IMG/VR virus record: IMGVR_UViG_3300009502_000203
Location: 1 to 23,913 of that record
DNA length: 23,913 bases
Source: a virus
Strand: one strand, 5' to 3'
The notes under the pieces were generated by a model. That model was not told the origin of the DNA and did not search any database. It worked only from the letters and a program-made list of their open reading frames with translations. Position numbers and translations under genes: made by a program. Shown piece after piece: positions 1-18,545 of this stretch; within the stretch, counting starts at the first letter, position 1, and every line of letters begins with the position of its first letter.

Positions 1-624
1 ATCCGTCGAGCCAGAACAGACTGATGAGGGTGCGGTTATTGTGCAGCGGCACTTGGACACAGCAGTCCCACAACTATAGCTCCCCGGCGTGCAGGTATTG
101 GCACTTGATATGAGATTGGACCCGTCGCCGAAATCTACTGTCTGCCCGGGTGTAATCACAACGGTCTTAGAAGGTAGTGACCATGCATTGTGGCAGGGGA
201 CATACAGGGGATCGTTGTTGACCTCAGAGACATGAAGGTACTCTGTAAGAGTATATGTCCCAGCTGGAACCCAATATTCTGTCACATCGGGGCAGATTAC
301 AACATACCCCGATTGTTGAGTGCCACAATCATTGGCCACGATAGCTCCGGGATTGGTCCACGAAGCAGCTACCGTGGAATTAGCGAACGTAACTGCATTA
401 ATGCATACCCCGTGCTCCCAATCGGTAGTTAGGCCACGGCAACTCGAATCCGGCTGGGTGGGGCAGTTATGGAAGTTGGGTTCTGTGTTGTATGGGTGAT
501 CGTTCGAAACCTTTATCCACCCGCCATTGGCTTTCTGCCAGTCTTCATAGGTAGCAGAGGGTTGTGCTGAAGCAGCCGCTATCAGCAGCAAACCAACTAG
601 TATTCCCACAAGGATCAATCTCAT
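1..624 (-). CDS. Secreted Cys-rich extracellular protein, 3' end runs off the window (not in ORF track)
   Basis: Manual translation from ATG 624 is open to position 1: MRLILVGILVGLLLIAAASAQPSATYEDWQKANGGW...CRCTITAPSSVCSGSTD. It has a classic Sec signal peptide (ASA|Q) and many Cys residues. Confidence 0.85.
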   Translation of the reverse strand, partial: MRLILVGILVGLLLIAAASAQPSATYEDWQKANGGWIKVSNDHPYNTEPNFHNCPTQPDSSCRGLTTDWEHGVCINAVTFANSTVAASWTNPGAIVANDCGTQQSGYVVICPDVTEYWVPAGTYTLTEYLHVSEVNNDPLYVPCHNAWSLPSKTVVITPGQTVDFGDGSNLISSANTCTPGSYSCGTAVSKCRCTITAPSSVCSGSTD

Positions 625-1102
625 AGGATCGAATAAGTGATTGACGAATATATGCATATCGAGCTGGACGTTCATGGTCCAACTGGTCAAATTGATTGAT
701 GATTTGGTTAGAAAATCAAGCCTTATATCATAGATCGCTTTGCCTTGCACATACTATATTTGCATGTTGTATATACAGTCCTATACTGCTAAAAAGACCA
801 CTAACAGGGCCAGAATATTATTATATATACCATTCAGACCTCGTAAATACTGATGTTGCGCGGCGGATTCTACATCGCGTTCTCTGTTTATCTGTTGCGG
901 GTTAATCGATAGCGGACAATTGTCGAAATACATTCCATAAAGTATAGAATGGTCAGATAGACAAAGTGATTTAGGTTGTCTGGAAAAGGATGGAGCAAAG
1001 ATGAAATCTTTGCAGGTTATACATACTCCAGAAGCTAAGATGTCCAGTATATCGCGGTTTAGCCCTGACTAACAAAATAGTTACCATGAAATCGCCCTGA
1101 AT

Positions 1103-5072: not shown

Positions 5073-5292
5073 CAAAATGCAAGATGAAATGGCTAAACAA
5101 TTTAGCGGTTATGCCATTATACTCCAGCTAAAGAGAGTCTAAAGGATACGACTAGGACACAAGCACCAGAACGCATCATATCAGATCTCTTCAGGCTGAG
5201 CGAAGATAGGTGTTAGGACAAGACCCAAGCAGATAGTAGTAGCAATCGCAAAGTTAATATTTAATGAATAAGAATTGTCTAACGATGCATCT

Positions 5293-6624
5293 ATGAGAAG
5301 AGAGATCTTTCTAATCTTGATAATTTTCATAAATATGTGCATGCCGGTACTTGGGCAGATGACCGCAGAACATTGGTTAGACAAGGGTAATGATCTCCTT
5401 TATCAAAGTAAATACAAAGAGGCTCTTGAAGCTTATAACAAATCTATCGAGATCAATTCAGACTTCACGGAAGCTTGGAGCAACAGGGGTATTGCTCTTG
5501 GACACCTATACAGATACAACGAGTCCATTGAATCTTTCAACAAGGCTATTGAACTCAATCCGGATTTCGCGGACGCTTGGAACAACAAAGGCAAGGTTCT
5601 CTCTGACCTGGGCGAATATGATGAAGCCATTCAGGCATTCAATATGGTAATCAAGATCAATCCACCAGAACTACAATTATTAGCGGGGGCTTGGTATAAT
5701 AAAGGCCTTGCTTATTATAACCTGGAAAAGTATGATGCAGCGGTTAGGGCTTACTACATGGCCACCGTTATTTACCCGCGATATGCCGACGCCTGGAACA
5801 ACATAGGCGTTGCTCTTATGGCTCAAGGAAAGGATGATGAAGCCCTCCAAGCTTATAACAAATCTATCGAGATCAACCCGACATATTATGCGTGGTACAA
5901 CATGGGCAATGATCTCCTTAATAAAAGCAAATACATTGAGGCCATCCAAGCTTATAAAAAATCCATCGAAATAAATTCAAAAAATGCATATGCATGGAAT
6001 AATAAAGGTTTAGCACTTCATGATCTGAGAAGAGATGGAGAAGCCCTTCAAGCTTACAACCAATCTATCAAGATCGATCAGAAATTAGAGGCTGCTTGGT
6101 TCAATAAAGGCTTAGCCCTCTATGAAAAGGCGTATTTCAACGAATCGATTCAGGCTTATGACCAGGCAATTAATCTAGATCCAACAGATTCAGAAGCATT
6201 GACCAATAAAGGTGCTTCTTACTATAAGCTTAAGAATTATCCCCAAGCCATTCAGACTCTTAATGATGCTATTAACATAACCCCAAACAATGCATACGCA
6301 TGGTACAACAAAGGTCTAGCTCTGGGGGCACTGGGTGAGTTCGATAGCGCCATCCAAGCCTTTGATCTGGCCATCAAAATCAATTCGAGCTATAAGGATG
6401 CCTGGTACAGCAAAGGAATGGCTCTCAATAACCTAGGCAAGTACGAAGAGGCCAACGAGTCTTTCGGCAAGGCTAACAAAATCTGTACATCAAAGTTGGT
6501 AATTTGCAGCGCTACAAATAATACAAGTCGACAGAATAACACTTCATATATGTCATTAGGTGATGAAGTACCTGCCGTTTTCAATCTAAAAGTGTGTCCC
6601 ACTACTGTGAGTATCCCTGGATAA
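5293..6624 (+). CDS. Secreted tetratricopeptide-repeat (TPR) protein
   Basis: Signal peptide MRREIFLILIIFINMCMPVLG followed by about eleven AW.NKG..L...EAI.AY.KAI.I.P repeats. DNA is visibly AT-richer than the flanks. Confidence 0.93.
   Translation: MRREIFLILIIFINMCMPVLGQMTAEHWLDKGNDLLYQSKYKEALEAYNKSIEINSDFTEAWSNRGIALGHLYRYNESIESFNKAIELNPDFADAWNNKGKVLSDLGEYDEAIQAFNMVIKINPPELQLLAGAWYNKGLAYYNLEKYDAAVRAYYMATVIYPRYADAWNNIGVALMAQGKDDEALQAYNKSIEINPTYYAWYNMGNDLLNKSKYIEAIQAYKKSIEINSKNAYAWNNKGLALHDLRRDGEALQAYNQSIKIDQKLEAAWFNKGLALYEKAYFNESIQAYDQAINLDPTDSEALTNKGASYYKLKNYPQAIQTLNDAINITPNNAYAWYNKGLALGALGEFDSAIQAFDLAIKINSSYKDAWYSKGMALNNLGKYEEANESFGKANKICTSKLVICSATNNTSRQNNTSYMSLGDEVPAVFNLKVCPTTVSIPG
6041..6396 (+). 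repeat. 356-bp direct repeat shared by the two TPR genes (second copy 7781-8136)
   Basis: Manual alignment at offset 1740 gives 18 mismatches in 356 bp (~95%), with no indels. Confidence 0.95.
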
Positions 6625-6630
6625 AAAACG

Positions 6631-8361
6631 ATGATATCAAATATTGACTTGATTGATCCACCTCTCAGCGAAATTGAGACAGAAAAGAACCCAGAGGATA
6701 TCCATATTAGGTTAATATATCAAAAAATTTTTTATGTTTTTAAAATTGTCATAATCTTAATCTCATTAGTTATTATTGGTTTTTTGATTTTAGTTGCAAT
6801 CGTTCCGGAGAACGGAATTATCATACAGCCGTTCGAAGGTAATCAAAAGAATCTTAGTGGAGTATTCACAGCCAATCATCTTAATTTCGAATTACTCGAC
6901 ATAAAAGATACTTATAGTAAGAAAATAGGTGACTCTGCATCTCAGTCTGATTATGGTAATGCACGTATAAGTATACCATCTATTTTAATACAAGCACACT
7001 CTATAGATTACAGCATCACCGGTTTGGGTAATGTTGGCGTTGGAGGAACATCTCTTTCCGTAGGTCAATTAGTTTTATCAATAAAGCAATTTACAGGTCA
7101 TAGTACACCGATCCTCTATGGCTGTATCGAGAGATCTAGATCGAATTTACGCATTATTGGCATTTTAAACGATCCAGGTCTCTCTGGGGGAACTAAGGCT
7201 TGGGAAATATGTAAGAATCTTTCAGAAAGCAGTGATGCTAGCGAAGAAGACATACCTTTGATGATCGAAGACCTTGCATTTCAAATAGCTACTAGCTTAA
7301 TAAATGAAGATAAATACCCTTGGTGGGATATCCTTCATTTCGTCCATTTATCGGAGACAGATTTCGGGAAAAATCCACAAACTTGGGAGGCATTCAAGAA
7401 TTTAACATTAAGCAGAAAAGCCTACATTAGATATACGGCTACTGGCAACATCAATGATCTAAACAGGGCCAGAGAATATGCAAGCATTGCAAATGAATCC
7501 GAACCCGGTTGCTCAGAAACTGCGGTTCTCTTTTCCCTCCTTGGTTCGTCCTATTTGAAGCTGCACGATTACTCAGAGGCAGAACAACTTTTCAAGAATG
7601 CTGTATATTTAAATCCTTCTGATAAAGTCTCCTGGTGTGGGATAGGCTTAGTTCTTCTCGAAAATAAAAATTTTGCAGAATCAATTCAAGCTTTTGACAA
7701 GGCAATAAGGATCGATCCGCGATATGCCGAGGCTTGGAACAACAAGGGCGTTACTCTTATGGCTCAAGGAAAGGATGATGAAGCCCTCCAAGCCTACAAC
7801 CAATCTATCAAGTTCGATCAGAAATTAGAGACGGCTTGGTTCAATAAAGGCTTAGCCCTCTATGATAAAACATATTTCAACGAATCGATTAAAGCTTATG
7901 ACCAGGCAATTAATCTAGATCCAACAGATTCAGACGCATTGACCAATAAAGGTGCTTCTTACTATAAGCTTAAGAATTATCCCCAAGCCATTCAGACTCT
8001 TAATGATGCTATTAACATAACTCCAAACAATGCATACGCATGGTACAACAAAGGTCTAGCTCTGGGGGCACAGGAAGAGTTCGATAGCGCCATCCAAGCC
8101 TTTGATCAGGCCATCAAAATAAATTCGAGCTATAAGAAGGAAGCCTGGTACCATAAAGGGGTGGTTCTCTATAACCAGGACAAGTGCGGAGAGGCCATCG
8201 AGGCTTTCGGTAAGGCCATCATGCTTGATCCCAACTATGCCAAGGAGCTTGAAAAGGACATGGCCGGCCAGGCACAAAGGATACCAATTCCCCCATGCAT
8301 GGCAGCAACTTCCACCTTCTTGAACAAAAGGGACGCGAAGAACGAGAACCTGACCTGCTAG
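6631..8361 (+). CDS. Membrane-anchored TPR protein
   Basis: N-terminal TM helix (VIILISLVIIGFLILVAIV), a non-repeat domain, then C-terminal TPR repeats. Confidence 0.92.
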   Translation: MISNIDLIDPPLSEIETEKNPEDIHIRLIYQKIFYVFKIVIILISLVIIGFLILVAIVPENGIIIQPFEGNQKNLSGVFTANHLNFELLDIKDTYSKKIGDSASQSDYGNARISIPSILIQAHSIDYSITGLGNVGVGGTSLSVGQLVLSIKQFTGHSTPILYGCIERSRSNLRIIGILNDPGLSGGTKAWEICKNLSESSDASEEDIPLMIEDLAFQIATSLINEDKYPWWDILHFVHLSETDFGKNPQTWEAFKNLTLSRKAYIRYTATGNINDLNRAREYASIANESEPGCSETAVLFSLLGSSYLKLHDYSEAEQLFKNAVYLNPSDKVSWCGIGLVLLENKNFAESIQAFDKAIRIDPRYAEAWNNKGVTLMAQGKDDEALQAYNQSIKFDQKLETAWFNKGLALYDKTYFNESIKAYDQAINLDPTDSDALTNKGASYYKLKNYPQAIQTLNDAINITPNNAYAWYNKGLALGAQEEFDSAIQAFDQAIKINSSYKKEAWYHKGVVLYNQDKCGEAIEAFGKAIMLDPNYAKELEKDMAGQAQRIPIPPCMAATSTFLNKRDAKNENLTC

Positions 8362-12997: not shown

Positions 12998-13270
12998 TCA
13001 TACCTTTCCCACTATCCAACCGATTGCAGCGAAGGCTGAACCCACGAGCCCCCATTTCAAGACGCCGTTCCGGCCCAGCCAGGAGAATGTGCATCGGGAG
13101 GCTTTGAAAACGAAAAGATATTTGTCGCCTTCATCCAGTCGGGCAAATATCTTATCATGCTCATTCTTGTTGCTCGTTGTCAGGCAGTTGACAGCCTGCA
13201 CGACCTGTCCGAGGATGATATCTCGGCTACATTCAGGAGGGATCTTGATGGCCGGGTCTTGGTCGTCCAT
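12998..13270 (-). CDS. Small membrane protein with C-terminal TM helix (holin/egress-like?), 90 aa
   Basis: Helical N-terminus plus the TM segment GVLKWGLVGSAFAAIGWIVGK. Confidence 0.6.
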   Translation of the reverse strand: MDDQDPAIKIPPECSRDIILGQVVQAVNCLTTSNKNEHDKIFARLDEGDKYLFVFKASRCTFSWLGRNGVLKWGLVGSAFAAIGWIVGKV

Positions 13271-13282
13271 GCGCCCTCATGC

Positions 13283-13477
13283 TCATGCATTGTGTGTGGC
13301 GGTGATCTTGCGCAGGCCTGCCATCAGCAGAGAACAAACTATGAGAATCGTCTGAGGCTCTATGCCTGTCTGCTGGCCCACGAAGGCAGCCGCGCCAGGA
13401 TCGATGTAGCCTACCAGACCGATCAGAAAAAGGGCAGCAGCGGCGATGTAGGTCCTATATCCTTCCAGATTCATCAT
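13283..13477 (-). CDS. Small two-TM membrane protein (holin-like), 64 aa
   Basis: GYRTYIAAAALFLIGLVGY...ILIVCSLLMAGLRK; GGAGGTGG RBS. Confidence 0.65.
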   Translation of the reverse strand: MMNLEGYRTYIAAAALFLIGLVGYIDPGAAAFVGQQTGIEPQTILIVCSLLMAGLRKITATHNA

Positions 13478-13692: not shown

Positions 13693-14187
13693 TCACCTCA
13701 TTCTCGCTCCCCGGTACTTTCTCAAAAGTTTCCTGGCCACTGAGCTAAGCAAGCACTGACTGCCCGCACCTACTACAAAAGTCTCTGACAGTTTGCCTGC
13801 GACTGTAAAGGACTGCACGCCCTCATCTTGTAACCTCTTGCGGCCTCCTATGCCGACACGGTAGATCTCTAATGCCTCTTCGATGCACGCAGATTTCACA
13901 TCCTGGGGGACTATTGCAAGCCCGCTGGTGCTGTTGTAGTCCAGAGTCACGCCATCGATAATTCTGGGGAATGCCCGTTTCTGATCCAGTACACCCGCGG
14001 TTATTCCTGGATCATATTTTTTGCCCCGATAATTCCAAGAATCAATAGCCTGAGTGGCTCTGTTTAAGTAAGAGGTCATCTGTTGATCTGCCAGTGCCTG
14101 GAATTCTGCGGCCCGGTCATCTCCTACTAAGTAGGTTGCAGTCTCGGCCAAAGTCACATAGGCGTCTAATACGGGTAGTTCGACCAT
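13693..14187 (-). CDS. Head-tail connector/adaptor ('DnaT-like' adaptor family), 164 aa
   Basis: AYVTLAET..YL, L.RATQAIDS..YRG.K, Q.RAFPR, VPQDVK.AC.EEAL and VARKLLRKY are typical adaptor motifs. Confidence 0.75.
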   Translation of the reverse strand: MVELPVLDAYVTLAETATYLVGDDRAAEFQALADQQMTSYLNRATQAIDSWNYRGKKYDPGITAGVLDQKRAFPRIIDGVTLDYNSTSGLAIVPQDVKSACIEEALEIYRVGIGGRKRLQDEGVQSFTVAGKLSETFVVGAGSQCLLSSVARKLLRKYRGARMR

Positions 14188-14205: not shown

Positions 14206-14388
14206 TTATTTGCCGAGGCCGGTCTTGCTCGGCTTATCTTCCTTCTCGCCCTTGTCTATCTCTTTGGGATGATCTTCTTTTGCTGGCCTGATCTCATATT
14301 TCTCAGGATATTTCTGTAGGTGCTTGAGAGTGCCCTCATCTGAGATCTCCCAGACAGTCTTTTCGATCTTGTTAAAGACTCTGACTAT
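14206..14388 (-). CDS. Small charged protein, ~60 aa, possibly from an ATA start
   Basis: Reads (I)VRVFNKIEKTVWEISDEGTLKHLQKYPEKYEIRP. AAGGTGT plus a 4-nt spacer precedes ATA 14388, which overlaps the upstream TAG. Confidence 0.55.
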   Translation of the reverse strand: MVRVFNKIEKTVWEISDEGTLKHLQKYPEKYEIRPAKEDHPKEIDKGEKEDKPSKTGLGK

Positions 14389-14822
14389 CTTAACACCTTC
14401 AGAATGACCATAGTGGCCGTGGTTACGTTTGTAGTCGAGAACTTGAGATACTTGGTAGTGTTCAGGAACCGGGCTGACTCCAACGGGCCGCACAGGACCG
14501 AGCGGTTGACTATAAGAGGGATTGCCAGGTTGCCTATCTCGGCCCGGAATGCAGGCGGGTTATTTCCGGCCAAGATGTTCAGTTTTGGACTTGTTCCTAC
14601 AGTTGTAGCGTTGATAATCACGAAATACGTGTAGGCGCTATCGTAGGCGATATACTTTGTATTCGTGCTCGTGGGTGCAGCACTCCAATAGGCAGCCGTG
14701 ACATAACTATTCTCACCCGTTAGTGTCCCGGCAGCCGTGAGCGCGGTATCTGTAGCCTGTACCTCTGCCATACCGGCTAGAAGTAAAGCACCGGCTAGCA
14801 AAAAATATAGAATCCTATTCAT
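14385..14822 (-). CDS. Post-MCP capsid-decoration-type protein carrying an N-terminal signal peptide, 145 aa
   Basis: The C-terminal LAG..PPA.RA..G.L...GPLESARF motif resembles genes that follow P22-like MCP genes in actinobacterial prophages (from recollection). N-terminus MNRILYFLLAGALLLAGMAEVQA|TD. Confidence 0.7.
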   Translation of the reverse strand: MNRILYFLLAGALLLAGMAEVQATDTALTAAGTLTGENSYVTAAYWSAAPTSTNTKYIAYDSAYTYFVIINATTVGTSPKLNILAGNNPPAFRAEIGNLAIPLIVNRSVLCGPLESARFLNTTKYLKFSTTNVTTATMVILKVLR

Positions 14823-14835
14823 CTTATCCACCTCT

Positions 14836-15705
14836 TTAGCTGAAGTTGCAGGTCATAACGCCCAAGCATGCCGGCTTCACTACTTTTCTGCCGAACACGT
14901 ACTCCCCATCTACCTTTCTGGCATACTGCTTTTCCATAGTCATGATACGAGTATCTTCTACCTGAGATGCGAAGGTTATGGCCTGCTTGGTGCCGAACAG
15001 GATCTTGTTCAATGTTCCGTTGGTGTTAGGCACGTTGTTGGATACCAGTAGCTCAAATCCTCCGATGCGGCCAATCGAGCCGTTTAAGATTGCCGGAGTT
15101 GCCACAGTTGGCGCGCTGGAACCCTGATCGTGCAGGTCGTTTACAATCAGTGCCTCCATCTCAGGAGGTATGATCATCCACTTGGGCATGGCTGCCGGCA
15201 CTTTGGACTTTTTGAGCTTGGTTCCGCAGTCCGTGATTAACTTGAATATGTTGGAAGGATCGGCCTTCGTTACATTAGGAGTCTTGGGTGCTGCGTCCGT
15301 GCCCACCAGATTAGAGGCACTGGCATCGACATAAGAAGAAGCCACAGCCAAATCTACTGCATCAGCCACAGCATAAGCTGCCTCTATGTTGACCTCATCC
15401 ATTAGGTTAATTAGGGTCTGCTCTTCATCTTTCTTGGGGATCTTGAAGTTGTAACCCTTATGAAAATCGATCACAAGATGGGTATCTGTATCCGCAATGA
15501 TTTCAGGGTCGGGCATGTCGACATTATCAGTTACATCGAATACAGTAACTCCGCCGATGCCGGTTAGGCGCACACTCTTAGCGTACTTTACTGATCCCTC
15601 ATAATTGCGATTAATCACGCCTTCCTGGGCAAAAACTAATACAGATTGTAGCTGGTGTTGAACTTCCAGCGCGACTCTTTCTTCTTTAAACGCTTCATAA
15701 GCCAA
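14836..15705 (-). CDS. Major capsid protein (HK97 fold, P22 coat-like family), 289 aa
   Basis: VINRNYEG...SVRL..IG.VTV..., LVID..K..NFKI, AAYAVADAVD, WMIIPP, G.IGRIGGFELLVSNN and YVFGRKVVKP. TTG start behind GAGGTGG. Confidence 0.9.
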   Translation of the reverse strand: MAYEAFKEERVALEVQHQLQSVLVFAQEGVINRNYEGSVKYAKSVRLTGIGGVTVFDVTDNVDMPDPEIIADTDTHLVIDFHKGYNFKIPKKDEEQTLINLMDEVNIEAAYAVADAVDLAVASSYVDASASNLVGTDAAPKTPNVTKADPSNIFKLITDCGTKLKKSKVPAAMPKWMIIPPEMEALIVNDLHDQGSSAPTVATPAILNGSIGRIGGFELLVSNNVPNTNGTLNKILFGTKQAITFASQVEDTRIMTMEKQYARKVDGEYVFGRKVVKPACLGVMTCNFS

Positions 15706-15714
15706 AGTACCACC

Positions 15715-16323
15715 TCATTCTCTTACTCGTCCTTCTGCTTCTGCTCGCTTAATATCGGCTAGCACTTCCGCAGTTATGGTTCCAGTCTTGCGAAGTTCCC
15801 GGACCTTTGCCGCAGTCCAAATTGTCTTTCCCTGCTGGTCTCCATTCTGCAATCCCTGGTTCCCAGCTCCGTGTGCATTTCCTCCACCTCCTTGTGCAGC
15901 CCCGTTACCCTGCTGGCCTTGCTGTTGCTGTCCTTCCTGGGGCAGCATTTTGGCCAGAGCCAGGGCTTCAAGGCTGGCGTTGATCTCAGTAGGGGTCGTT
16001 CCGGCAATGTTCAGGAATTGCAGCAGTACCGGGATCTGACCCGATGGAACATTGCGCTGCATGAGGGCCTTCATCTTGGCCAGTTCCAGGTCAGCACCCT
16101 TTAGCGTCTCGCCCTTCGGCTCCTCTTTCGGCTTCTTGCCGGCTGCCAGGAGAGCCTTTGCTTCTGCTAGCGGCATTCCGAGCGCAGTTTCGAGGTCTGC
16201 TAAACTCATGTTATCCTCTTTTTGCTGATTCCCTTCTGGACCAGCTCCTTGGCCCTGGTCTACCTGGCCCTCTTCTTGACCCTGGTCTACCTGGCCGTCT
16301 CCTGCGTTTTCTTCATTTTCCAT
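15715..16323 (-). CDS. Capsid scaffolding protein, 202 aa
   Basis: Directly before the MCP. Acidic Q/G low-complexity segments (GQVDQGQ twice), helical core and C-terminal IKRAEAEGRV. Confidence 0.75.
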   Translation of the reverse strand: MENEENAGDGQVDQGQEEGQVDQGQGAGPEGNQQKEDNMSLADLETALGMPLAEAKALLAAGKKPKEEPKGETLKGADLELAKMKALMQRNVPSGQIPVLLQFLNIAGTTPTEINASLEALALAKMLPQEGQQQQGQQGNGAAQGGGGNAHGAGNQGLQNGDQQGKTIWTAAKVRELRKTGTITAEVLADIKRAEAEGRVRE

Positions 16324-16406: not shown

Positions 16407-16718
16407 TTATAAGATCTGTATGTTGTGGATGCAACCGGGGTGAAATAGGCCCTCCTCTCTTGCTTCTTCAATCGAGGGAAAGCCCGGCACATCCCCAGTC
16501 AAGCTCACCACCTGGCCGGCCCATTTCAGGCATACTGAGCAGGTGTTTCCTGAGTGTCCTTCTGTGATCCTGCACAATGTCATCCTTGCCTCTACCATGC
16601 CGTTTAGGTTGCCTTGCCGGAAGCTCTGGATAGTGGCCTCTGGCCCCAGGAGAGAGGCATAGCGGCCCATGTCCCACTTGTTGCCGGTCTTATCTACGAA
16701 TCCTGTTAGCTCGTCCAT
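16407..16718 (-). CDS. Minor capsid protein (Phage_min_cap2/MuF-like), C-terminal part, 103 aa
   Basis: GFVDKTGNKWDMGRYA, C..C..WAGQVVSL and GLFHPGCIH. Own GGAGG RBS 5 nt before ATG. Confidence 0.8.
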   Translation of the reverse strand: MDELTGFVDKTGNKWDMGRYASLLGPEATIQSFRQGNLNGMVEARMTLCRITEGHSGNTCSVCLKWAGQVVSLTGDVPGFPSIEEAREEGLFHPGCIHNIQIL

Positions 16719-17146
16719 GTGGGCCTCCCTGGTGCGGCCTTTTGCATAGCTGCTTTTAGGTGTGCAAGATTGTGCTGCTTGATCATATCATCAATCTGCC
16801 TGCCTACTACATCCACCACACCGGCCAGCCTGGAAAATGTACTCTGAGCCAGAACATCCATCGTTTGCAGGTGCAGCGGGCTTAATGATGTTGGGTCTAA
16901 ATTGCCCCGGGCTGCTCTCAGGCCGGCCAAATAACAGTCAGGTATGGCCTCCTCGACCCACTGCCGGGAGCCCGCCAGCAGTTCTGCTCTTATCTGCTTG
17001 ATTCGTGCTACTCTCAAATCATCTGGTCCGATGATAGACGATTGCAAAAGAATGCAATTGCATTCTCTCAGTAGCTCTCGTTCTGCATCCTCGAATAGCT
17101 TAATGAGACGTTGGGCCTGGGGGCTGGTGGGGGGAAACTCAGGCAT
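16706..17146 (-). CDS. Minor capsid protein, N-terminal part, 146 aa
   Basis: Follows the portal; helical (RLIKLF..AEREL, W...AIP..YLAG, LH.Q....LA). Overlaps the C-terminal ORF by 13 nt in another frame. Confidence 0.7.
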   Translation of the reverse strand: MPEFPPTSPQAQRLIKLFEDAERELLRECNCILLQSSIIGPDDLRVARIKQIRAELLAGSRQWVEEAIPDCYLAGLRAARGNLDPTSLSPLHLQTMDVLAQSTFSRLAGVVDVVGRQIDDMIKQHNLAHLKAAMQKAAPGRPTWTS

Positions 17147-18545
17147 TCTGCTCCACAGGCTGGACGGGCAGGACTGGTTGCAGCTTGATAATTGGCTCTG
17201 CCGGTGCTATCCTCTGTTGTGCACCCCGGATTCGTTCAAGCTCCTGGTTAAAGGCGTCAGATCCTTCTTTAAATCCCTGTAGCTCCAACTTGCGCTCTAA
17301 TGAGAGTGCCCCAAGCGAATCCCAGATCTGGGCTGCTGTAGCAGTTTCGATCTGATCTACCGGCAGGCCGTCTTTCAGGATGACGCTGATATTACTAATC
17401 TCGATTACAGGAGGATGCAACTGAGACCAGAGGTTCAGGACTTTTGGTATTGCCTTTTCCATGGCCCTGGCGTGCTTGTCCACCTGAGACATAGTTGGAA
17501 TGAGGCGGAAGCGCAAGGCTGTTCCGGATTCGGCTGTACCTGCATCTTTGCCAGCCAGTAGAACTCGGCTGAGTTGGAGCATCTGAAGTAATTGGTCCAT
17601 CTTTTGATCTATGGCAGCCTCAACATGGCCGAGCTGGGCGTCCCAGACCATGAGAGAAGGCGGTACGTCCCCCGGCATTGTAAATATGGGCTCCCCTGGT
17701 CGATAGACCCACTCTCCTAATCCGTGATCGAATACCTGGGCACTGTCCGGTATTACAGGAGTGGGTGCTGTGAAATTGCTCTGTACCGCGTCACGCTCAG
17801 AAAATGAGATTTCCAAAGACTCGATCAGAGAGAGGACCGATGGCTTGTAGTCCGAGCGCCCATAATATCGCTCGCTTGATAGCGCATTCTGAACATGGAC
17901 AATTAAGGTATCATCCACATCTGTTTTCTGGACCCCATTTTCTTCTATGACAATATCTGCGAAGGCAGGGAAGCTGTTGAGCACCAGAGGGCCACTTAGC
18001 TTTCCTCCCCTCAACTCAAATAATAGGTGCTGAATCTGACCCTTGCTGTGGATCGTGAACTTGATATATTCCAGCTCTTTGCCTTCGTCGTTCTTCTGCT
18101 TGAACTTGGCAAAGATCACAAAATGAGTTATGTGCTGAAGATATACCGGCGAGACCACCAGATACATGTTTTCGGGATTGATGATATAAATCCCCTGGTT
18201 AGTGACTTCATAAGCCGCATGACCGTATCTACTGGCATCGATTACTACTTGCGAGTCTGGCCGATCCGGGATAACTTTCATAGGAGTCTTGATTTCGATA
18301 GGCTTACCAAAGCAGAGGTTCAAATATGTGGTTGTGGCCAATTGTGCCCAGTCCAGGATGATCTTTGGCTTATGCTGCCTCTCTGCCGTGTCGGCCAGGT
18401 AAGCTGCATACCGAGGGAAAATGCTATCGTGCAGGCCGTTATAGATCTGCCTCATGAGCACATGCTCAGCTATGCGGTTGGCCTCATCTTCGTCTTTAGG
18501 CGGCCACTGTCCCCCATCTATCAGAAAGTCCAGGTTATTTAGCAT
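17139..18545 (-). CDS. Portal protein (SPP1 gp6-like), 468 aa
   Basis: Position after TerL, size, and motifs HVQNALSSERYYGRSDY and AGTAESGTALRFRL. Confidence 0.88.
   Translation of the reverse strand: MLNNLDFLIDGGQWPPKDEDEANRIAEHVLMRQIYNGLHDSIFPRYAAYLADTAERQHKPKIILDWAQLATTTYLNLCFGKPIEIKTPMKVIPDRPDSQVVIDASRYGHAAYEVTNQGIYIINPENMYLVVSPVYLQHITHFVIFAKFKQKNDEGKELEYIKFTIHSKGQIQHLLFELRGGKLSGPLVLNSFPAFADIVIEENGVQKTDVDDTLIVHVQNALSSERYYGRSDYKPSVLSLIESLEISFSERDAVQSNFTAPTPVIPDSAQVFDHGLGEWVYRPGEPIFTMPGDVPPSLMVWDAQLGHVEAAIDQKMDQLLQMLQLSRVLLAGKDAGTAESGTALRFRLIPTMSQVDKHARAMEKAIPKVLNLWSQLHPPVIEISNISVILKDGLPVDQIETATAAQIWDSLGALSLERKLELQGFKEGSDAFNQELERIRGAQQRIAPAEPIIKLQPVLPVQPVEQNA

Follow-up and report, generated by a model that had tools for sequence, protein, structure and literature searches.

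Tailed viruses are thought to assemble their heads wholly in the cytoplasm, and archaeal N-glycosylation takes place only outside the membrane. Gene X, which lies directly behind the major capsid gene in IMG/VR virus record IMGVR_UViG_3300009502_000203 (positions 1 to 23,913; this whole stretch of 23,913 nucleotides is referred to below as the window), encodes a small protein, P0001, with a secretion-type leader and four N-X-S/T glycosylation sequons. A protein from the capsid gene block is thus apparently sent outside the membrane, which is unusual for tailed viruses. Comparison of gene X with its relatives lends good support to export and N-glycosylation of this protein, which would be made late and together with the capsid protein, and several described systems offer points of reference for what such a protein may do.

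Auxiliary capsid (decoration or cement) proteins—lambda gpD, T4 Soc/Hoc, phage L Dec, epsilon15 gp10 and that of BPP-1, with the HFTV1 turret proteins as archaeal counterparts—can join finished capsids in trans and are the one class of head protein known to do so. Gene X resembles them in its small size and in adjoining the capsid gene. We know of no signal peptide in any of the proteins listed, and a full-text search of the literature returned no report of a signal-bearing decoration protein. Bacterial prophages also carry exported moron products in their late regions, among them lambda Lom and Bor and the Cor-type exclusion lipoproteins, and gene X is like these in encoding a signal-bearing protein within the structural gene block of a tailed virus. 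Morons, however, are inserted extras with their own promoter and terminator, whereas gene X is a modified form of a family gene already resident at that site.

The sheath of the host and the secreted sheath (SH)-like proteins of Methanothrix viruses, neither of which figured in the original prediction made from this DNA, are the most relevant context. Thirteen of 16 Methanotrichales (pro)viruses encode secreted SH-like proteins, which are proposed to disturb the sheath for exit (PMC11576556, Medvedeva, Borrel, Gribaldo 2024). The screen in question kept signal-bearing proteins of 150–350 aa, the viral ones being 159–288 aa long; SH proteins have an amyloid-like core made up of two six-stranded beta-sheets and were reported to be without bacterial structural homologues (PMC11576556). 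Like them, the gene X product is encoded by a Methanothrix virus, carries a Sec leader, is rich in sequons, and is predicted to act outside the membrane. Unlike them, it is 145 aa long and thus below the 150–350-aa filter, has about nine predicted strands in place of two six-stranded sheets, and comes from a capsid-adjacent phage family that also occurs in a bacterial prophage. When the family was aligned with seven host SH proteins by hhalign, only 19 leader columns aligned (probability 8%), and the family motifs are absent from the viral SH-like sequences and hidden Markov models of PMC11576556. Membership of gene X in the SH-like group is accordingly unsupported by sequence. The prevailing view is that archaeal tailed viruses have no membrane and leave the cell by lysis, and in one of them, HRTV-DL1, some structural proteins stain as glycoproteins by an unknown route (PMC10384203).

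The described family to which gene X itself belongs is phrog_24894, whose members are leaderless. Both have the same domain, a predicted beta-sandwich, and the same place directly after a Phage_capsid_4-type capsid gene, but phrog_24894 is without the 23-aa leader and the conserved sequons of gene X. The profile matches gene X residues 31–143 (E 1.5e-8; profile positions 8–119 of 123), and its position 1 projects to around residue 24; the 23-aa hydrophobic leader of gene X lies ahead of the domain. A Pfam scan of gene X assigned no family, and a profile search of PDB sequences with gene X yielded only noise (E 0.1 or worse).

The leader and its distribution in the family

The open reading frame (ORF) had been described as starting with the n-, h- and c-regions of a signal peptide behind a good ribosome-binding site, and this reading stands. 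The translated product begins MNRILYFLLAGALLLAGMAEVQA, followed by TD; the three regions are MNR, ILYFLLAGALLLAGMA and EVQA. On direct reading, the ATG at 14822 lies 13 nt past the capsid stop and is preceded by AGAGGTGGATAAG, the ribosome-binding element being GAGGTGG. Leader-bearing homologs comprise 28 close and about 60 further sequences, and the leader is present in 28/28 of the close ones and in all members recovered from 67 viral contigs.

Judged from hydrophobicity and a −3/−1 analysis across 86 homologous leaders, it is the architecture that has been kept and not the sequence. Leaders average 22 aa with an uncharged run of 17.5 aa (means), and 83/86 carry a net positive charge in the first six residues. 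Alanine occupies position −1 in 71 of the 86, and position −3 is A, V, T or S in 84. Neither gene X nor its homologs possess a twin arginine, a Cys at +1, a lipobox, or a pilin-type (class III) site, and the gene X product, once cut as predicted, would retain neither a membrane anchor nor a lipobox nor a sorting signal at its C-terminus.

The leader is translated, and is no artefact of ORF extension, because its substitutions are codon-periodic (1712/1118/2531 at codon positions 1/2/3, a third-position excess), 49 of 58 unique loci have a Shine-Dalgarno-like GAGGTG ahead of the leader ATG, and several homologs have no internal Met usable as a downstream start. The same observations rule out M18 as the true start. 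Synonymous and non-synonymous substitutions stand at 1373:2033 in the leader versus 10215:7035 in the mature part; the leader evolves faster at the protein level, and conservation is high in the residues that follow the predicted cut. TDTA(I/L)TA, with which the mature protein is predicted to begin, lines up with the very first residues of leaderless homologs (MA-R/D/N-TA-x-T), and the leader is therefore a clean N-terminal addition. Its identification as a conserved, translated signal of Sec/signal peptidase I (SPase I) type is supported by these comparisons.

Relatives were gathered by exhaustive phmmer and profile searches, the leaderless profile giving more than 368 of them, and a tree was built from 218 unique sequences with the leader columns removed. 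It separates the leader-bearing clade from 128 leaderless sequences with a support of 0.94. The leader clade contains 87 unique sequences, and its most recent common ancestor subtends 90 tips, the sole exceptions being three N-truncated gene calls. Leaderless members are 119–135 aa long and start MA(R/N/D)T. Sequences within the leader clade are only 30–40% identical; both clades conserve a core of G86, P89–A91, R93, G97 and G112–F119. A capsid ORF is directly upstream of the family gene in 76/76 loci that have upstream sequence, and the family gene likewise directly follows the capsid gene in six leaderless loci (L078–L081, L092 and L093). By tree and alignment, the leader was gained by one clade, exactly ahead of the ancestral N-terminus.

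No family member follows the related capsid genes of phages D6E, phiCP39-O, Rita and Jace, and the gene is therefore not universal for this capsid family. A tblastn search of 50,697 phage records found only vir515, whose host is given as Methanosarcinales, and a 400-genome sample of the host's phylum gave only spurious matches confined to the leader, the window itself aside. All genome assignments within the leader clade are to Methanothrix/Methanosarcinales, save one short contig. Where assignments exist, the clade is linked to viruses of Methanothrix, a sheathed methanogen. The short contig (L009; 2.7 kb, in a Dehalococcoidia metagenome-assembled genome, MAG) carries a leader-bearing member nearly identical to several IMG/VR contigs of the archaeal-type clade, and is most likely a mis-binned virus fragment and not a leader-bearing bacterial member.

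The earlier statement that leaderless relatives follow capsid genes in bacterial prophages is correct as to their place after capsid genes, and one such member lies in a prophage-like region of genome G401. This genome carries four penicillin-binding transpeptidase genes and two Amidase_2 genes, families that matched only bacteria among the control genomes, and is verified as bacterial. Another leaderless member lies on a phage contig that also encodes homing endonucleases of the GIY-YIG and HNH types and gives a weak Acb2/Tad1-like match.

The further question of whether leader and sequons co-occur only in archaeal members has a mixed answer. They do co-occur in a single clade, assigned, the short contig aside, to Methanothrix/Methanosarcinales; the split is not purely archaeal versus bacterial, because a contig of the Methanothrix sp. 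fen_7 MAG (L010) carries both forms. Here, a leaderless copy (5440–5802; 120 aa, one sequon) and a leader-bearing copy (5818–6270; 150 aa, six sequons) stand in tandem after the capsid gene. Recent duplication in place is ruled out as the origin of this pair, the leaderless copy ranking only 116th of 131 in likeness to the leader clade. The tandem pair is followed by a gene for a 1819-aa repeat protein. Most leader-clade viruses have no remaining leaderless copy.

Sequons, host and probable glycosylation

Four sequons had been noted in the mature part of about 122 aa, and all four are present: NAT at N71, NRS at N106, NTT at N121 and NVT at N132. In gene X taken singly this number is not above chance (composition shuffles give a mean of 2.2 and P(>=4)=0.14); its density of 2.8 per 100 aa is the highest of the 17 window ORFs, the others having 1.4 or less. 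Across the family, the mature domain holds 4.76 sequons in the leader clade (3.9 per 100 aa) versus 1.36 in leaderless members (1.1 per 100 aa), a 3.5-fold difference in density. Occupancy in leader-bearing and leaderless members, respectively, is 43% and 1% at N52, 91% and 21% at N71, 51% and 3% at N98, 98% and 2% at N121, and 69% and 2% at N132. N71, N121 and N132 are invariant across the 28 close homologs. The middle residue of the sequon varies freely—S, T, A, E, G, D, N or Q at N121—with the N and the T/S kept, and the leaderless clade reads Q-x-D at position 121 instead of N-x-T. Retention of the sequons at 30–40% identity points to selection on the sequons themselves. As judged from the alignment, the leader clade acquired between three and five conserved N-X-S/T sequons.

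The window makes up almost all of one contig (C59) of a 3.13-Mb, 99.6%-complete genome. This host genome contains an archaeal small-subunit (SSU) rRNA (1566 bits), two STT3/AglB genes (PF02516) above cut-off on contig C39, and at least eight SH-type protein genes (L101–L108). Related loci in species-representative genomes are found in Methanothrix MAGs in five of six cases. The archaeal SSU rRNA, the related loci, the host given for vir515, and the SH-type genes together identify the host as a sheathed Methanothrix. Glycan transfer by AglB takes place on the outer side of the membrane, and the sheath of Methanothrix is itself a glycoprotein (PMC2952790). The premise that AglB glycosylates exported proteins outside the membrane accordingly has both published support (PMC2952790) and a host that encodes the enzyme.

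A conserved hydrophobic stretch and conserved N-X-T triplets could have an origin other than export. The leader might be an uncleaved membrane anchor, tethering the protein (and perhaps capsids) to the inner face of the membrane or across it, or else a hydrophobic arm buried in the capsid, and the sequons might be Asn-X-Thr turns that serve the structure and never receive a glycan. Structural constraint can keep N-X-T conserved, the host SPase I is matched only below cut-off, and the AlphaFold2 (AF2) model of P0001 presents the leader as a plain helix with a predicted local distance difference test score (pLDDT) of 72–82. We consider this explanation improbable. Most leaders obey the small-residue rule at −3 and −1, the leaders evolve fast while the residues past the predicted cut are highly conserved, and the cut would restore the ancestral N-terminus. 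Furthermore, the leaderless clade has the same fold without N-X-T at the sequon positions, and the middle residues of the sequons are unconstrained.

A possible capsid coat or envelope factor

Gene X probably lies inside the late head operon and is expressed late, together with the capsid protein. Late co-expression is suggested by the 13-nt spacer, in which a bacterial-type promoter and terminator scan (of little value in an archaeon) found no terminator-like site. This arrangement bears on the idea that gene X encodes a moron-like factor for surface conversion or superinfection exclusion, displayed on the lysogen and blocking related viruses. Small exported proteins do occur inside structural modules, as with lambda Lom and Bor; the element sits on a contig binned with the host genome and may be temperate, and the locus of one leaderless relative (L079) carries an integrase. 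We nevertheless judge superinfection exclusion to be very improbable, and it is the less likely option because a gene packed 13 nt behind the capsid gene leaves no space for its own promoter. An exclusion gene has to be expressed in the lysogen, whereas gene X shares the late operon; it is a modified resident gene at its ancestral position and not an inserted extra; and cleavage of the leader would leave nothing to hold the product on the surface—neither membrane anchor, lipobox nor C-terminal sorting signal.

The favoured reading is that the gene X product has kept its ability to bind capsids and joins them once the membrane has ruptured, within the closed space beneath the sheath, to which we assign a probability of roughly 0.4. 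The precursor would be exported through Sec and cut after A23, and host AglB would N-glycosylate the product on the outer face of the membrane. Having no anchor, it would build up in soluble, glycosylated form within the enclosed space that separates the membrane/S-layer from the tubular sheath. Once the membrane ruptures at the end of infection, finished capsids would meet the product under the sheath, and it would bind them through the interface common to leaderless relatives (motifs NPPAFR and GPLESARF). A capsid assembled in the cytoplasm could in this way gain a coat of host-type N-glycans otherwise out of its reach. Capsid binding is favoured because the motifs are shared with leaderless relatives, tight linkage to the capsid gene has been kept, and most members have lost the cytoplasmic copy. 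It is also favoured because a finished capsid can take up auxiliary head proteins in trans, and for the same reason the relocation of such a protein would be tolerated. The complete scenario, in which an HK97-class virus finishes its capsid outside the cytoplasm with a head protein that is Sec-exported, AglB-glycosylated, stored under the sheath and added after the membrane breaks, is put forward only tentatively, as somewhat unlikely.

Structural comparison bears on both this reading and its chief competitor. The AF2 models of P0001 (pLDDT 89; about nine strands) and of a leaderless member (pLDDT 90.7) are both beta-sandwich or jelly-roll-like. In VIA-align, the two best match generic beta-sandwiches at Z 7–9.5, comprising the SID1 ectodomain (Z 8.8 and 9.5), GOLD, a clostridial collagen-binding domain (Z 7–8) and CUB, with CBM also among the matches. 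Foldseek against the PDB returned nothing at E<=1e-3 for either model; the leaderless model gave a weak match to the HFTV1 turret chain 8qpg_TA (E 4e-3), the only virus-head match. Matches in BFVD are uncharacterised phage proteins of 113–129 aa, for example from Mycobacterium phage Typha, and those in the ESM Atlas are unnamed viral clusters only. The 'capsid-decoration-type' label that gene X had been given is therefore drawn from position after the capsid gene and from size, and not from fold: no solved decoration or cement protein was matched by either model.

Several further points count against the favoured reading. No solved decoration or cement protein is among the top structural matches of either model, and virion binding, for which gene position is the sole ground, is its weakest step. 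The ancestral family offers no known function, phrog_24894 being annotated 'unknown function'. Export and use of the sequons are argued purely from comparing sequences, and the co-occurrence of leader and sequons counts as a single evolutionary event because the leader clade arose once. The archaeal SPase I of the host was found below the family cut-off only (29.6 bits). The contig that keeps leaderless and leader-bearing copies side by side argues for different jobs, and binding after lysis would be inefficient unless the sheath truly retains the gene X product.

In the main rival reading, the protein is no longer part of the virion. As an envelope-directed factor for egress or adhesion, the gene X product would act from within the cell late in infection, binding to the host S-layer, sheath or plug or intercalating there, and these layers would be weakened or marked for exit, as proposed for the SH-like proteins of Methanothrix viruses. 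A precedent exists in the 13/16 Methanotrichales (pro)viruses with secreted proteins proposed to tamper with the sheath (PMC11576556). The gene X leaders mimic those of host sheath proteins: 46 of the 86 end in G-x-A-x-A, and the endings GMAGA and GMASA are identical to host sheath-protein leader ends (host SH leaders L101–L108 end, for example, ..ALVGMAGA, followed by ANYMYEK). These shared ends suggest that a host leader was captured or that the viral leaders became adapted to the route of export and processing used by the host proteins. Cytoplasmic and exported paralogs in L010 suggest non-redundant roles, the fold is nearest to extracellular binding modules (the SID1 ectodomain, collagen-binding, CUB and CBM matches given above), and production late, in large amounts and together with the capsid protein would suit an effect on the envelope by mass action. 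We regard such a factor as a possible but somewhat unlikely explanation. Its mature domain is without similarity to host SH proteins, and the family motifs are missing from the published viral SH-like set. The motifs common to leaderless relatives, one of them in a bacterial prophage, are conserved, which would be unexpected had the partner become an archaeal sheath, and strict adjacency to the capsid gene has been kept across deep divergence. These shared motifs and this linkage are among the reasons for preferring binding to capsids.

Head module, neighbouring genes and significance

The coordinates of gene X and of the head module, which is read leftwards, are collected in Table 1.

Table 1. 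Gene X and neighbouring head-module features in the window.
Feature	Position	Strand	Remarks
Gene X (P0001)	14385..14822	(-)	ORF including stop codon, 145 aa; secretion-type leader and beta-sandwich domain with four N-X-S/T sequons
Leader, residues 1-23	14754..14822	(-)	n-region MNR, h-region ILYFLLAGALLLAGMA, c-region EVQA; predicted SPase I cut after A23
Mature domain, residues 24-145	14388..14753	(-)	Predicted beta-sandwich; motifs NNPPAFR and GPLESARF; sequons N71, N106, N121, N132
13-nt spacer, capsid stop to gene X start	14823..14835	(-)	Carries Shine-Dalgarno-like GAGGTGG
Major capsid protein, HK97 fold class	14836..15705	(-)	Immediately upstream of gene X; phrog_267 E 1.5e-44; PF25209 Phage_capsid_4 E 1.8e-8
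Small ORF, about 60 aa, conserved	14206..14388 (to 14493 from GTG)	(-)	Between gene X and adaptor; comparison with relatives
Head-tail adaptor, Ad1 type	13693..14187	(-)	Next structural gene; phrog_477 E 1.4e-11; PF20557
Scaffold-like gene	15715-16323		Head module, read leftwards
Two minor-head pieces	16407-17146		Head module, read leftwards
Portal	17139-18545		Head module, read leftwards

The small protein encoded after gene X is conserved in relatives, contains VRVFNKIEKTVWEISDEGTLKHLQ and has a K/E-rich tail. In relatives, its ATG overlaps the gene X stop (TAATG or ATGA), giving translational coupling. The equivalent codon is ATA in the window and in four near relatives, and the sole canonical in-frame start in the window is a GTG at 14493, 109 nt inside gene X; translation could restart at a near-cognate codon or begin within a long overlap, or the gene could be decaying.

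Further candidates for membrane or exported proteins are found elsewhere in the window. Downstream of the adaptor, within the structural block, 12998–13477 (-) encodes two small membrane-type proteins, one of 64 aa with two hydrophobic segments and one of 90 aa with a C-terminal hydrophobic segment, which could be holin-like exit proteins. A second putative exported protein is encoded at 1–625 (-), where it is cut by the contig end with its C-terminus beyond; it has the leader MRLILVGILVGLLLIAAASA, then QPS and a Cys-rich domain, and gave no Pfam match. At 5275–8361 (+), two long TPR-repeat proteins with hydrophobic N-termini occupy a low-GC island (0.38–0.42 versus about 0.5–0.56 around it) and look like foreign cargo.

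Gene X appears to represent a resident head-module gene that was converted once to an exported, sequon-rich form and then kept across a diverse clade of Methanothrix-associated viruses. It is a testable candidate for extracytoplasmic capsid decoration, or for a new class of exit or adhesion factor in viruses of sheathed hosts, and its family stands outside the published viral SH-like set, its own 145 aa falling under the 150-aa filter of that study. If capsids are indeed coated in the manner proposed, this would be the first route by which host-type N-glycans reach a Caudoviricetes capsid assembled in the cytoplasm, and it could explain the glycoprotein staining of structural proteins in archaeal tailed viruses. 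The combination of a leader and N121-x-T next to a capsid gene also provides a marker for viruses of these globally important acetate-using methanogens.

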